Shown one piece after another: positions 6,389 to 52,930 of a stretch of 64,000 nucleotides of DNA. The stretch's first letter is position 1. Every line of letters begins with the position of its first letter. Location of the stretch: positions 122,264,001-122,328,000 of the forward strand of contig OZ024745.1 of NCBI GenBank assembly GCA_964016885.1, read 5' to 3'. Position numbers and translations under genes: made by a program. The notes beneath the pieces are model-generated. The model did not search any database. It saw only the letters and a program-made list of their open reading frames with translations, and was not told where the DNA came from. Source of the DNA: Eledone cirrhosa (taxonomy: Eukaryota).

Positions 6389-6468
6389 GTCCAGCAGTAG
6401 CGAAGGGGAAGCATTATCCTGATGAGAAACATTAAGTTCGAAATGCATCCCCCTTGTTTCTGCTGGAC
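6389..6468 (+). ncRNA. Hammerhead ribozyme core inside a short fold-back (stem I displaced)
   Basis: CTGATGA(6419-6425)-gaa..ttc-GAAA-tgca-TC; enclosed by gtccagcag...ctgctggac inverted repeat. Confidence 0.45.
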
Positions 6469-7112
6469 ACCGCTTGGCAGCACTGACCACCAGCCTACTA
6501 TCCATAGCTGTGGGTTTCAAAATGTTTATTTATAAACATACCGTATATCTTTAGATACACAAAATTCACATACAACTTTACATTATAATCTGCACATATA
6601 AACACTATTAGTCATTGGTATTATAATAGTCATTAGTATGTGCGTTGTTTAGTGGTTAGGGTGCTGGATTCATGATCATAGGGATGTGAGTTTGATTCTT
6701 GAGCCGAACGATGTGTTGTGTTGTGTCCTTGAGCAAGACACATTATTTCATGTTGATACAGGCCACTCAGCTGGCAAAAGAGAGATGTATCTGTAATTCA
6801 AGGAGCCACAGTGTCATGCTGAATCTTCCTGAGAATTACATTAAGGATGTGGACATCTCAGTCACTTGCATGTTAGTTTCATGAGTTGGTTGTTCCATGA
6901 ATTGAAACAAGTGAAGCACTTGTTGGAAACTACAAAGGTCCAGTGTAGGATACATAAAATCAAGTCAATTTGGAAAAGTAAAATTTAATTATCATTTATA
7001 AAACCTACATAGATATAACTTATGTCAAATATAAAAAGTTGATATCTGCATCTGTAAGTTAAATGAACTGAACTTTTGATATTTTGGTAATCTTTCAATT
7101 GAATGTTTTTAC

Positions 7113-7533
7113 TTAACCCTTTAGCATTTAAACCAGCTGTACCTGGCTACAATTCTCTCACCATTTTCTGTTTAACCCTTTAGCATTTACATTACTCTAT
7201 ATTTACTATTATATTTTCATGGTAAAGACTTTACTTCACATAATTATCTCACATAATTTTGATATTATTTATTTTGAGAACAATACCTTAACATCAGTAT
7301 GAGTGGCTGCTTATGGCTGGTTTGAACAGAAAGAGGTGAGAGAATTCTGGCCAGATATGGCCGGTTTAAATGCTAAAGGGTTAAACCAGCCACTCATACC
7401 GACATTAGGGTATTGTCTTCAAAATAAATATCAAAATCTTGTACATTTGATATTATGTGAGATATAATTATGTGGGATAAAGTCTTTCCTGCGAAAATAC
7501 AATACTAGAATAATCTAAATGCTGAAGGGTTAA
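7113..7533. mobile_element. TTAA MITE family 1 with an inverted copy of the same family nested at 7172-7384
   Basis: Inner copy bounded by duplicated TTAA; the outer halves rejoin into a normal copy. Confidence 0.85.
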
Positions 7534-7878
7534 GCCATTGTCTTTTGCTGTTACAATGGAAATATTTTTGTCTTACTTTTCATCCTCCTTTTACTTGCTT
7601 CATATTTTTCACATTCTAACATGCCACCACTTTTTTTTTTGTTTTGTTTTCAAACCAAATTACAATATGAAAATATTAAAACAAAACTGTCTGTTGGTAG
7701 TAGTAGTAGTGGTGGTGGTTGTAGTGAAAGTAGTAGTGGTTATAGTGAATAATTTAATCTTTGATTTTTGTTAAATGAATGAATGAATATGCCAAGAAAT
7801 AATACTTTTTTTTTCCTTTCATCTATTTTTCATGTTATTTCTAAACATCCAATAACTCTTCATATATTTAACTTTCAG

Positions 7879-7912
7879 GGGTATTATCACAGATGAAAAG
7901 ACCAAACAAACA
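7879..7912 (+). CDS. Host gene exon (G)VLSQMKRPNK, phase 1-2
   Basis: actttcag acceptor, ca|gtatgt donor; phases match exons 4419-4578 and 27450. Confidence 0.65.
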
Positions 7913-8929
7913 GTATGTATTTTTCATTCACTGCATGCATCATTATTTTCTTAATTTATTTATCCATTCATTTGGAAAAAAGTTTGTATGCAAGAACGAA
8001 TATTTGCTTTCTAGAAATGTCCTTCTTTTCTTATTTCTACACTTACATAAGAAGTATTCATGCATATACATCTGGTGGTATGATTTAAAGTAGATATATT
8101 CAAGCAATTTTTCATCTCTGGCCATTATTTTTCTACTTACCTACCCTTGTTTTGCACACACTCTCCCATTAGTTCTTTTTACAAATTCTATCCTCCAGCA
8201 CATTTAATGATGAGATTTTATTTCATCAAGGATAAGATTGTTTGGTTTGCACTAACTTAATTTTTCACTTAGTTTAACTTTACAAACCTTTGGCATGGCT
8301 ATTTCTCTCTACTTCAAAGGAAACACACAAAACAGTAACCTCTCTCACCCCCAAAACAATGCATAATAAACAGATTTTAGTAAATTTGAAAAGCTTTTCT
8401 TCCATTCTATAACCACCAAAATGTTGGTACTATTAGGATCTTTTCCTTAATATATTAAGATAAAAATTTCAAGCAATTTAACTAGAAGGTATTATATTTA
8501 TTGAGGACTGATTTGTCCAATAAATTTATTTGAAGGAAATACAAATTTAAATACGTTCAAATATTTGAAAGCCTTACAATGTATGCGAGATTAAAAGTGC
8601 CAAGGTAATAGGAGTTATAGAGGAAAGAGTGAGGACGATAGAATTTTACCTTAGCAAATTTATTTATCTCAAATATTTTCGAGTTTAAAAACCCATTCTT
8701 AAGAGAGGGTCTGTGTGTAGGTGTTCAAAGAGCAATCGGGGGTGAATTGTTGTTTAGTTGGCAGATTTAATTTGTAGGGTTTTAGGGTGATTGTAATGAG
8801 TGAGAATAGATGCTCAATGCAACTGACATTGCTATAATACATTTCTGAACTGCTAGGACACTTAGCATCATTCAAATTCAATGTTGCATATATAATATAG
8901 GAATCTAATGAAATATAATAGTTCCATGT

Positions 8930-49400: not shown

Positions 49401-51300
49401 ACTATAGCAGTTATTGATTTTATTTTTTGTTAGCTTTGCTGGTTGATGTAATTGGATAGGCAGACTTTTGGAAAGTAAAATGAATTCCGTTGTGATAGCT
49501 AAGTTTTTAGTTATTTACTGCTTCCCATATATTACTTCGACAGAGACACTGCTGCTAATTCCTGCCCTTCACTCAACACACCACTAGTAATTTAGGCTTC
49601 GAAAAATAGGAAGTCTGTTTGAATCGGTCTTGTGAAATTACTCATAAACACCAGATTGCTATGAAAATAAAGAGGAGAGATGGGGAGGGAAAGAAAGGTT
49701 ATTTTCTCTTCAAATGTTATGGTTTGATTATTTTTGTAGTGACAGTTACCATGTCTATATTGATTTTTGAATGTTATCTTTCCTTTGTCTCCAGTAACTA
49801 ATGCATTATATTAATTTGACAACTATAGAATCATTGCCACTAGTTAAATATTTTTTATCTTGTCTGTTCGTTATATTTCCTAGGTAACAAGTCTTGTTAT
49901 TCACACCAGTTTACATATACTCTAGAAAATTCACCAAATAAACCACTTTACTGAAATAGTTTTTCGTTCCCTTTCGTTCTGGAATAAACAGCCTACTATA
50001 ACATTTTCTTCTCTTTACTTTCATTTATAATTATGATGGCCTGTTTCAGTTCCTCGATATATCCAACTGCAAAACTAATATAGAAAAAAAAACAATCTGT
50101 GTTAGTGAGTAGCATTCTCTGGTCTGACTATTAAAGAATTTATTTTGGTTGGTTATATTACACATTTGTTTTTTTGGGGAGAAATTTATTCCATTTCTTT
50201 TTATAGTTTAGTTAGTTGAGTGTGAAATGAGCAAGGTGGCTCAATGTTTAGTAATTCTTTCTTTGATGCAGTCAATTTAGTTGTAACCTGCATTTTCAGC
50301 TGTTTCGGTTTATAGACGGAATTGGAACAATGATATTTCGCAATGACAGTTTTTTTCTCATTATAAAACAGCAGAATCCTGAATAATTTAACAATGTTTG
50401 TATCTTTTGTTTGCTCTATGAAACGAAAATAAATAAACAAAAATGTTCTGCCATTTCCATAATATTTATTTGAAGTATTTCTGACACTTTCCTCATACTT
50501 TGCATAAAACAATTTGAAGATAAAAGAATGTGTGTATCATCATCGCCGTTTATCGTCCATCTTCCTCTCTAGCATGGTTAGACGGGTTGTTTTATTTGAG
50601 GCAGGTTGGATCAGGTGACCATGTCTTGCTCATGTAGAACTGTTTCTGGCTAGGTTTCTACAGTTGGATGACCTTCCTAATGCTTTTGTCGTGTCTCCTA
50701 CACCACAACTTTACAGCGTGGCCTGGGTGCCTTTTGTCGTGACTTCTACACGACCACTTTACAGTGTGGACTGGGTGCTACACGTATGTATGTATTTAAA
50801 AATAAGGGTGTGTATATATATATATATATGTATAGTGGGTGTGTGTTAATACACACACACATATATCATATAATAGACATCACACTGCTCGGGCTGTTTC
50901 CCCCCTATTCTCCCTTACCTTTTCTATGTCTCAGTGTCCTCCTTTGCACATTGGACAACAGTCCTTATTCTCTTCTCTTTTACTATTTTTCTCCTATGGC
51001 TAAGCCCTTGTGCAATCTATATTTGTGTAATTTGCCTTAAGGCATAACTTGTCTCTACCTGTCTTGTTATTTCCCAATGTACACTGGAATGCGTGGTAGC
51101 GACCTTAATTAACCGAAACCGTAGTGATTTCCATAGGCTGACTGAGGAGATGGGACTGTCCATCATTCCGTTGTTTTTTCCATTGTCTTTGCCCTGTGCG
51201 CTCCCTATTTTTAATATATATATATATATATATATATATATATATATATATATATACAATGATATTAAATAAATAGAAACTATATTTATAAAACCATATT

Positions 51301-51361
51301 TATTCTATTATATATATTTCAAGGGTACCAAAACTTTGGTACGCTCTCATCAGATAAAATA
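51301..51361 (-). ncRNA. Minimal type I hammerhead (left-arm copy)
   Basis: Reverse complement of 51419-51479. Confidence 0.65.
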
Positions 51362-51418
51362 CAAAGTTTGTTTTATAAATATTGACATATCCAGGAAGAA
51401 GATATAAAACAAACTTTG

Positions 51419-51479
51419 TATTTTATCTGATGAGAGCGTACCAAAGTTTTGGTACCCTTGAAATATATATAATAGAATA
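51419..51479 (+). ncRNA. Minimal type I hammerhead (right-arm copy)
   Basis: Stem I tattttat/atagaata; CTGATGA; stem II gag.gtacca/tggtac.ctt; GAAA; palindromic tatata stem III; ATA triplet. Confidence 0.65.
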
Positions 51480-52930
51480 AATATGGTTTTATAAATATAG
51501 TTTCCATTTATTTAATATCATTGAATATTATACTCCAGAAAACTTGTCGAGTGCTTCGAATCAGTTATAAACATATATATATTTGTTGAATTACCAACAA
51601 ATTAAATATCCCTTTTGCTTATATATATCGGTTTTGTTGACAACCAAACGACCGTTTAAAGGTTCTTCAACATGTATCATTTTCAACATTAATCCATTTA
51701 GTTTCTCTTAGCCAATATATTTTTTGTGCGTTTTAACAGGAACATTTTCTGAAGCTTTTCAAACTGGATCAAAATGTTTTCTTTTAGGTTTCCATCTGGC
51801 TCAGAGCTAATCTATATATAAATTTCTGTGGTTCTGTCACAACACGTAAAGAGATAGTTTGACTACCTCATACTATTCCTCTCTCTTTACGTTTGCTACC
51901 TACATGAATTTGTGTGTGTAAAAAGGAAGGGATGGTGAAAAAATGATGCTGTGTGCGAGTGTATGTGTGTGTTTGTGTAAATGTATGTATGTGTTTTTGT
52001 GTAAATGTATGTTTGTGCGTTTGTGTAAATATGTCTGTGTTGCTGTGAATGTATGTCTGTGGGTGTACTTTTCTAAGCATGTCTGCGTTTGCGCGTTTAT
52101 ATTTATATACTCATACATATAAATGTATGTATATGCACACGCATATACACATACACGTCAGCATCTTGAAAAAAATTCTAGTATTTTCATAAAGCCGATA
52201 ATGTAGTCTTTGTTGATTAATAAAACTTTCTTCGTTGTATGTGGGGACAATTATGAATGCTCTATTTTTGTTATCAACTTAATTCAGTACTTTCAACTTA
52301 ATATTTGATATTTATTTCCAAATCTTCATTATCTTTATGTTCATATAAAAGCTATTATTATTGGTTATATAATTAGAAACTTTTTTTCATAATTTTCAAC
52401 TCCTCTACATTTGGAGTTTATAGTGTGTCAAATATACAATGATAATATAGATAGCTGGTGCTTGATGTTTTCACAAAATAAGCTATCTACAGATCATAAG
52501 TGTTAAATCGGTTGATTTAATACTTTTGTTAATATATTTTCCAGGAAAATCACTAAGTATGATTCTCAATTAAATCAAGAATTTGGAGGGATTTAGTAAT
52601 ATAAGTAACTTTCTCATTATTAACTTACTGTTTGGAGTATAACTTTAACCCTTTAGCAGTCACATTATTCTGTATTTACTATTGTATTTTTGTGGTAAAC
52701 ATAATATCAAATCTATGAGATTTTGATATTATTTATTTTGATAATACCTTAATATTGGATGAGCAGCTGATTTCAGCCAGTTTGAACAGAAAGAGGTGAG
52801 AAAATTCTGGCCAGATATGGTCAGTTTAAATGCAAAATAAAATAAAATAAAATAAAAATTGATAGTGTATTCAGTATTTGTGCCTCATGTTTTTACTATT
52901 GCAAATGTTTTAAATTATTCACTATATATA

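Follow-up and report, generated by a model that had tools for sequence, protein, structure and literature searches.

The hammerhead ribozyme motifs scattered through a 64,000-nucleotide stretch of the Eledone cirrhosa genome (contig OZ024745.1; hereafter the window) raise the question of what kind of element placed them there. The initial annotation assigned motifs at five loci (6389, 11428, 11830, 17087 and 51301/51419) to the introns of one gene, and saw in them a diverse class of short ribozyme retroelements that share a fold-back integration mechanism and whose sense copies could cut the pre-mRNA. We consider it highly probable that the five loci are independent insertions from five abundant families, here called A to E, three of them 3' ends of Penelope-like elements (PLEs) of the Hydra clade and two of them ORF-less units of the retrozyme type, likely copied in trans. 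Thus several unrelated families and a common style of integration survive from the earlier description, as does a non-autonomous nature for two of the families, but the remaining three are termini of coding PLEs, which comes close to the outcome that the annotation itself named as refuting its reading.

Using a type I descriptor (CUGANGA, GAAA and NUH, with stems I-III in type I order), four complete cores were recovered from the window (+17094, +51427, -51353 and -11463, the core at -51353 being an inverted duplicate of that at 51427), a frequency unlike that of shuffled sequence (mean 0.14 and maximum 2 cores in 100 block-wise dinucleotide shuffles of the window). The copies at 6419 and 11830 fail the descriptor, the first because the window copy lacks 10 nt that serve its relatives as the stem I 3' strand, and the second being half a core. 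The cores divide 3:3 between the strands, and those at 6419, 17094 and 51427 do lie on the plus strand, as had been claimed for three sense-strand copies. However, these elements are not a special local group. In 40 arbitrary 10-kb stretches of the genome (399,800 bp) there are 42 cores, or 6.7 per 64 kb, and the four in the window are in keeping with this background (P(<=4)=0.20), with no clustering; the window is not enriched in hammerheads over arbitrary genome stretches. A density of ~1 core per 10 kb would extrapolate to about 3 x 10^5 hammerhead cores in the genome, whereas an earlier survey gives far fewer, 4,000-9,000 motifs, for coelacanth and Xenopus, with a descriptor that differs from ours (Cervera and de la Pena, 2014; PMC4209133). 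None of the 73 Rfam matches at E<=10 was to a hammerhead family. The features of the window are as follows.

6304..6574, plus strand: family A, one decayed copy of a retrozyme-type tandem unit (~332 nt, ORF-less)
6419-6425 (CUGAUGA) and 6440-6443 (GAAA), plus strand: family A core, both boxes present
11336..11510, minus strand: family B 3' pLTR and tail of a putative Hydra-clade PLE; minimal hammerhead with palindromic stem III, core 11463-11457
11501..11682, minus strand: PLE ORF fragment (past the RT DD motif), tblastn 82% and 75% to amino acids 258-316 of the L190 ORF
11722..11830, minus strand: abundant repeat fragment abutting element D, outside the ribozyme element, from match coverage
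11829..11893, minus strand: family D, 5'-truncated stub of a putative Hydra-clade PLE end, with half a hammerhead and a 17-bp inverted arm
11872-11869 (GAAA) and 11852-11850 (GUC), minus strand: family D half hammerhead, 3' half, U3:A8 variant
16816..16989, minus strand: family C inverted 5'-truncated arm (174 bp, 95%), its short 3' end lying in (TA)n
16990..17419, plus strand: family C direct arm, ORF-less 538-nt tandem unit with a full type I hammerhead
51252..51402, minus strand: family E inverted arm (short end) with a second hammerhead copy, core 51353-51347
51403..51620, plus strand: family E 3' end and tail, the third putative Hydra-clade PLE; minimal hammerhead with palindromic stem III, core 51427-51433

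The five termini are mutually non-homologous by blastn, as first proposed, with a sole cross-match of 22 nt between 6389 and 17087 (E 0.03), and four of the five loci abut (TA)n, the exception being 6389. Inverted duplication, described earlier at four loci, is confirmed as insertion-made arms at three (17087, 51301/51419 and 11830), but not at 11428, where no inverted arm was found, nor at 6389, where the 27-bp inverted repeat (6389-6415/6442-6468, 81%) is internal to the family A unit. At 51301/51419 the paired arms measure 126 bp (51252-51377/51403-51528).

Coding capacity is fullest in family B. Its terminus flanks RT and EN (endonuclease) ORFs, and one locus (L189) has two direct termini 2577 bp apart; the frames, of 585-722 aa, carry RT followed by a C-terminal endonuclease within an element of <3 kb. 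Loci L188-L199 of this family show the motifs RWR, DKT, YRDDG, CxCX5C, CxxC and CxH, CxCX5C being kept in L188 and L189 and mutated in L190. In the window, an internal deletion of ~1 kb has fused the ORF fragment straight to the terminus of family B, the two being collinear with loci L188 and L176 (gap ~970 bp). In families D and E, only EN and the adjoining parts of the ORF were linked: of 25 longer D copies, 10 have same-strand EN homology upstream (CxCX5C, CxxC and CxH), and of 25 longer E copies, 5 have it ~1.3 kb upstream, again on one strand with the terminus (CxCX5C and CxxC); the EN domains of the relatives of D and E are 34-42% identical to each other. Both families are abundant, with 1475 exact matches to a family motif just upstream of the D stub and 1197 E candidates at 97-99%. 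A Pfam search found GIY-YIG or RT in none of six PLE ORFs; PF26215 is carried by many of the 120 homologues listed.

The hammerhead of family D is a U3:A8 variant. The window copy keeps only GAAA, stem III, GUC and the 3' strand of stem I, its 5' half having been lost by truncation, and has inverted arms at 11830-11846/11877-11893. A canonical CUGANGA core with a long stem II was dropped for this family, its 40 pattern matches being heterogeneous flank coincidences, and the U3:A8 core was adopted in its place; UUGANAA is present in 15 of 25 longer copies, and over 21 rows 96.6% of stem cells are paired, with 0 two-sided changes. The neighbouring fragment at 11722..11830, which alone was covered by 39 of 39 other top matches of the search query, is a repeat that we take to be SINE-like.

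From their motifs, and a by-eye likeness to the published text for Hydra-1_Obim, we assign B, D and E putatively to the Hydra clade of PLEs with a C-terminal EN (Craig et al., 2021; PMC8557442). As far as the available part of that paper describes the clade, B, D and E are alike in having a (TA)n target, a 3' hammerhead, an inverted 5'-truncated copy and an optional tail, with partial tandems; B, in addition, encodes RT and EN within <3 kb and agrees with the Hydra diagnosis that section 11 gives. The clade motifs (RWK-like, DKT, CxCX5C, CxxC and CxH) are matched most fully by B, D and E being compared on the EN-side motifs only. Copies are very numerous here, with 51,982 first-look candidates for the B endonuclease. 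Hydra-1_Obim has itself been published with a (TA)n target and a hammerhead (PMC8557442, supplement excerpt); however, the hammerhead sequence listed there for Hydra-1_oBim differs from all five described here, which are thus other families, and our tails measure about 75-95 nt against a quoted 30-40 nt. The motifs also resemble the minimal PLE hammerheads in the accessible text of Cervera and de la Pena (2014; PMC4209133), being dispersed single motifs from truncated PLEs, with opposite-strand pairs 100-700 bp apart, palindromic stem III and, in D, the U3-A8 core variant, but C and D differ in having a stable stem III of 5-7 bp.

Families A and C are of another kind. Family A has 2634 candidates, the best copies at 78-87%, and a direct-repeat offset of 323-335 nt in 8 of 25 loci (partial tandems only); family C forms arrays of up to 1267 nt, in which the longest stop-free frame is 107 aa. 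Neither the A unit nor the C array was matched by 120 Hydra-like proteins in tblastn, and no autonomous partner was found for either with Hydra-type proteins as the only probes. In their DNA units A and C are like animal non-LTR retrozymes as excerpted from Cervera and de la Pena (2020; PMC7229834), with short ORF-less tandem units and one type I hammerhead per unit. Unlike these, they occur mostly as stubs of less than one to 2.5 units and in head-to-head pairs of PLE type, rather than in long arrays. Such retrozymes have been proposed to be non-autonomous PLE derivatives, in the available portions of PMC7229834 and of Li, Clavereau and Pollet (2026; bioRxiv 10.64898/2026.07.22.740005), and trans-mobilisation of A and C by a Penelope-type enzyme would be likely. 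The words 'inverted', 'cephalopod' and 'octopus' have 0 occurrences in the available text of PMC7229834; PMC13282606 mentions Penelope-like families, with 0 occurrences of 'ribozyme', and a literature search found no paper devoted to cephalopod hammerheads beyond Craig et al. (2021).

How the inverted arms arise is best judged from family C. In the window its inverted repeat pairs 16816-16989 with 17159-17332; the direct arm has its short end at about 17332 and a tail to about 17419, followed by (TA)n, with the core at 17094-17100 and a predicted cut after 17161. A census of 65 loci of this one family on one contig gave 47 head-to-head pairs, 33 joining a short end to a tail, 1 tail to tail, 0 short to short and 13 with an irregular end, so that 33 of the 34 clean pairs are asymmetric (p 4e-9); 19 arms are longer than one unit. 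The single tail-to-tail pair (L345) is probably a chaining artefact and was retained in the count. A pile-up of 5' ends at the ribozyme cut site was also considered and rejected, as 1 of 101 arms ends within 5 nt of it against ~2 expected if uniform, and the end of the window arm near 17159-17162, beside the predicted cut, is taken as coincidence.

An inverted arm could also form by fold-back, a single cDNA snapping back to copy itself, and the accessible text of PMC3846280 proposes a version of this for palindromic PLE junctions, favouring self-priming on an antisense template. The inverted arms of C, D and E in the window lie largely or wholly within the span of the direct strand of their family, and in several E copies the sequence breaks off at a natural 9-bp hairpin, as such a process might predict. 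Yet in 18 of the 33 short-and-tail C pairs each arm has sequence that the other lacks, the short arm extending further 5' than the tailed arm while having no tail, so that neither can have templated the other; moreover, the end of the second arm is a fixed site of its own, neither the end of the first arm nor a random position. The geometry of the C arms thus argues against fold-back and for two primings. Fold-back we regard as improbable; the common mechanism first suggested is contradicted for C, and an inverted 5'-truncated copy with an optional tail is, in the sources available in part, a stated PLE feature.

We propose instead that a PLE endonuclease would nick both strands within a (TA)n tract and that both DNA ends would prime reverse transcription, the first starting at the end of the tail and the second 75-95 nt upstream of it, at the short end. 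With such twin priming, both cDNAs would stop early and join head-to-head, leaving a tailed direct arm opposite an inverted arm that has no tail. Since it lies near the 3' end, the hammerhead would survive in most stubs, and its role may be in processing or circularising the RNA of the element, not in the host gene. There is a precedent in PAc, where both strands are cut and RT begins at either of two sites that delimit the tail (PMC11167929). For family C the template would be a circular RNA or an uncleaved multimer. In B, C, D and E the short end is followed after 5-11 nt by a motif, RCTC...GAGYRC, whose chance probability is 0.0005 per site; the motif was defined post hoc, and its hairpin in E is not the MFE structure. 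It is absent from A, where clean TA ends are also mostly absent. Tentatively, C may borrow a Hydra-clade hairpin start signal, two Hydra RTs priming from the two DNA ends in (TA)n, each at its own fixed site on a single circular RNA.

It is very unlikely, by contrast, that sense-strand intronic hammerheads cut or regulate the pre-mRNA of a host gene. Weak exon candidates, upstream and at 4419-4578, do favour a gene on the plus strand. None of 55 candidate frames for it had a Pfam match above the cut-off; homology searches and a PDB search found no match, the best Atlas score was 0.76, and a search of representative sequences gave 3 weak matches, the one inspected being repeat-like. The C core has stems of 7/5/7 bp, its isolated hammerhead fold lying within 0.9 kcal/mol of the MFE. 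However, beside the upstream inverted arm that fold is predicted to cost 6.4-18 kcal/mol in C and 90 kcal/mol in E, stem III of E is no more than a palindrome, a form for which PMC4209133 reports no activity in monomers and weak activity in dimers, and 6419 is without stem I; neither the even strand split nor the background density points to a host function. With one plus-strand core broken and two predicted to be masked by their own inverted arms, cutting by sense copies would be poor or nil.

Least likely of all is a distinct ribozyme class independent of PLE proteins, such as RNA replicons inserted through host repair or a LINE RT, for although the tandem units of A and C lack an ORF and no autonomous partner was found for them, C shares with the coding Hydra families the two ends, the head-to-head (TA)n anatomy and the post-end motif, the flanks inspected show no poly(A) tail after the ends, and B, D and E are ends of coding PLEs.

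All five families belong to kinds already known, Penelope-like retrotransposons and retrozyme-type repeats. As a locus the window has little importance, since PLE ends saturate the genome and the window is typical of it. The estimated core density is high enough for intronic strand bias to be tested genome-wide, given annotation. The asymmetric and often mutually exclusive arms of family C, however, allow the origin of PLE inverted repeats, listed as unresolved by Craig et al. (PMC8557442), to be tested on genomic data, and the work names a concrete pair of enzyme and cargo in the family B Hydra ORF and unit C. If true, priming by two RTs on one circular RNA would explain the inverted-arm footprint of PLEs generally.

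The five hammerhead loci are fresh members of already known element kinds, present at an ordinary density. The motifs themselves are real: four complete cores in the window match a type I descriptor (+17094, +51427, -51353 and -11463; 51353 duplicates 51427 in inverted orientation), the expectation from 100 shuffles being 0.14, and an Rfam search of the window recognised none of the hammerheads. The initial annotation's count of at least five loci holds in part, with complete cores at 11463, 17094 and 51353/51427; however, the 6419 core fails the descriptor because 10 nt making up a stem I strand in its relatives are missing from the window copy, and 11830 has solely the 3' half of a hammerhead. 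Nor are the motifs concentrated here. Using the same descriptor, slightly relaxed, on 40 arbitrary 10-kb stretches (L277-L316, 399,800 bp) of this 3.0 Gb genome, we found 42 cores (0-3 in ten shuffles), or 6.7 per 64 kb versus four in the window (P=0.20), and the cluster is therefore background density. Extrapolation gives roughly 3 x 10^5 cores in the genome, counting both arms of inverted pairs. On sight, many of the 42 belong to families other than the five described here, and family D ends alone number 17 in that sample.

Each locus belongs to its own dispersed family: A (6389), B (11428), C (17087), D (11830) and E (51301/51419). The termini of A-E show no mutual homology, which bears out the earlier remark that they differ in primary sequence. 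A first-look genome search gave 2634 candidates for A, 4892 for B including its ORF piece, 2758 for C and 1197 for E; D has 1475 exact motif matches.

Repeat features of the window
11336-11682, minus: family B with its ORF piece
11829-11893, minus: family D stub, adjoined by a repeat that we take to be SINE-like
30954-31869: 15-bp (ATGATGGTGGTGATA-like) array, 62 copies, several frames open
38558-43078: tandem repeats of a 54-bp unit (84.5 copies at 97% match), the CUGANGA box being absent from both strands
51252-51620, both arms: family E
53409-55923, minus: LINE-like remnant, presumably RTE-type; it holds an RT frame of 490 aa plus endonuclease-like pieces
56916-57923, minus: broken transposase frames, presumably mariner/Tc1-like

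The upstream extension of longer family B copies is an endonuclease-like frame with 51,982 candidates genome-wide, and twelve long-frame loci gave ORFs of 423-722 aa. Family B locus L189 carries RWR, DKT, YRDDG and CxCX5C and has two direct hammerhead termini spaced 2577 bp apart, while L188 and L190 carry CxxC and CxH; RWR, DKT, CxCX5C, CxxC and CxH-type motifs are diagnostic of the Hydra clade of Penelope-like elements (PLEs) in Craig et al. (2021; PMC8557442). A Pfam search of the family B ORFs gave no recognition, and the Hydra assignment is by motifs. Hydra-1_Obim, listed in the supplement of that paper, has a (TA)n target and a hammerhead different from those here. In the window copy of B a piece of the ORF survives at 11682-11501 (82% and 75% identity), joined to the terminus across a deletion of ~1 kb. 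Among 25 longer family D copies, UUGANAA is flanked by a stem I of 4 bp and a stem II of 9 bp in 15, appears as one-letter variants in four and is absent with that part in six; ten show same-strand endonuclease (EN) homology in their upstream sequence. Its structure has 96.6% of cells paired and no covariation, and the U3-A8 core variant is already published (PMC4209133). Longer family E copies reach a third related EN ~1.3 kb upstream in 5/25 cases. At L273:815-2706 (+), near a family E copy, a PLE-like RT carries a DKG motif and belongs to a clade other than Hydra; this PLE class is a candidate partner for family A.

The suggestion of retrozyme-like elements was sound for A and C, both tandem units without an ORF. 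The period is 538 nt in C, whose longest frame is <=107 aa, and 323-335 nt in 8/25 loci of A, which, with copies at 78-87%, is old. Probing 125 A/C insertion loci, some overlapping, for a Hydra-like ORF placed pieces close to 13 sites in varied positions and orientations; we read these as separate neighbours sharing TA tracts, because the tandem unit runs straight into the next. By the definition in PMC7229834 and the Li 2026 preprint, A and C would be non-LTR retrozyme-type units.

Exon-like plus-strand frames of a Ser-rich protein occur upstream of the window (L166:9383-9884 and L164:2636-2808, joining in phase) and within it at 4419-4578, 27450-27584 and ~29081-29205, but these yielded no name for the host gene and no support for its span across the five loci. 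An acidic stretch in one frame is presumably FFAT-like. With plus taken as sense, the cores split 3:3. Of the sense cores, 6419 is broken; 17094, folded by itself, has the hammerhead within 0.9 kcal/mol of the minimum, but keeping it costs 6.4-18 kcal/mol when the upstream arm is included; for 51427, which has a weak, dimer-type stem III, the cost is 90 kcal/mol. Pre-mRNA cutting is therefore predicted to be rare.

An inverted, 5'-truncated copy with an optional tail is a known PLE feature, and a common fold-back integration had been proposed as the origin of the inverted arms. We took the first 70 family C pattern loci on contig C1, less five overlapping, and in these 65 found 47 head-to-head pairs, whose 3' ends were short plus tail in 33, two tails in one, two short in none and irregular in 13 (short-plus-tail excess, p 4e-9, 34 clean pairs). 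Among those 33 pairs, 18 have a short arm that extends further 5' than the tailed arm yet lacks the tail; neither arm is therefore a copy of the other, which argues against fold-back in family C. This is also at odds with the self-priming proposed for inverted PLE copies in PMC3846280. The geometry instead is consistent with a pair of primings, each at a fixed RNA site of its own, as observed in vitro with an anole element that cuts both strands and whose two RT starts bound the tail (PMC11167929). Family C arms longer than one unit (19), arms spanning the predicted cut site (56) and a start within 5 nt of it in only 1/101 point to a template RNA that would be circular or uncleaved.

Different hammerhead families are often piled in one TA tract (L002, L020, L033, L040, L058, L089, L158, L193, L199 and others), every insertion providing TA sequence for the one that follows. 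In family D stubs (L131-L155 and incidental copies) the cut very often falls 5-40 nt upstream of GAAA, within stem II and its loop, and family E stubs often end at a natural 9-bp hairpin. Such ends may be junction hot spots driven by structure, in a sample that the query has partly biased.

Beyond the short end, at 5-11 nt, B, C, D and E carry RCTC...GAGYRC (chance 0.0005 per site, for a motif defined post hoc), which is absent at that place in A. The motif tentatively links family C to the Hydra machinery, and this reading of twin priming with a shared hairpin is the sole part that goes beyond the cited papers.
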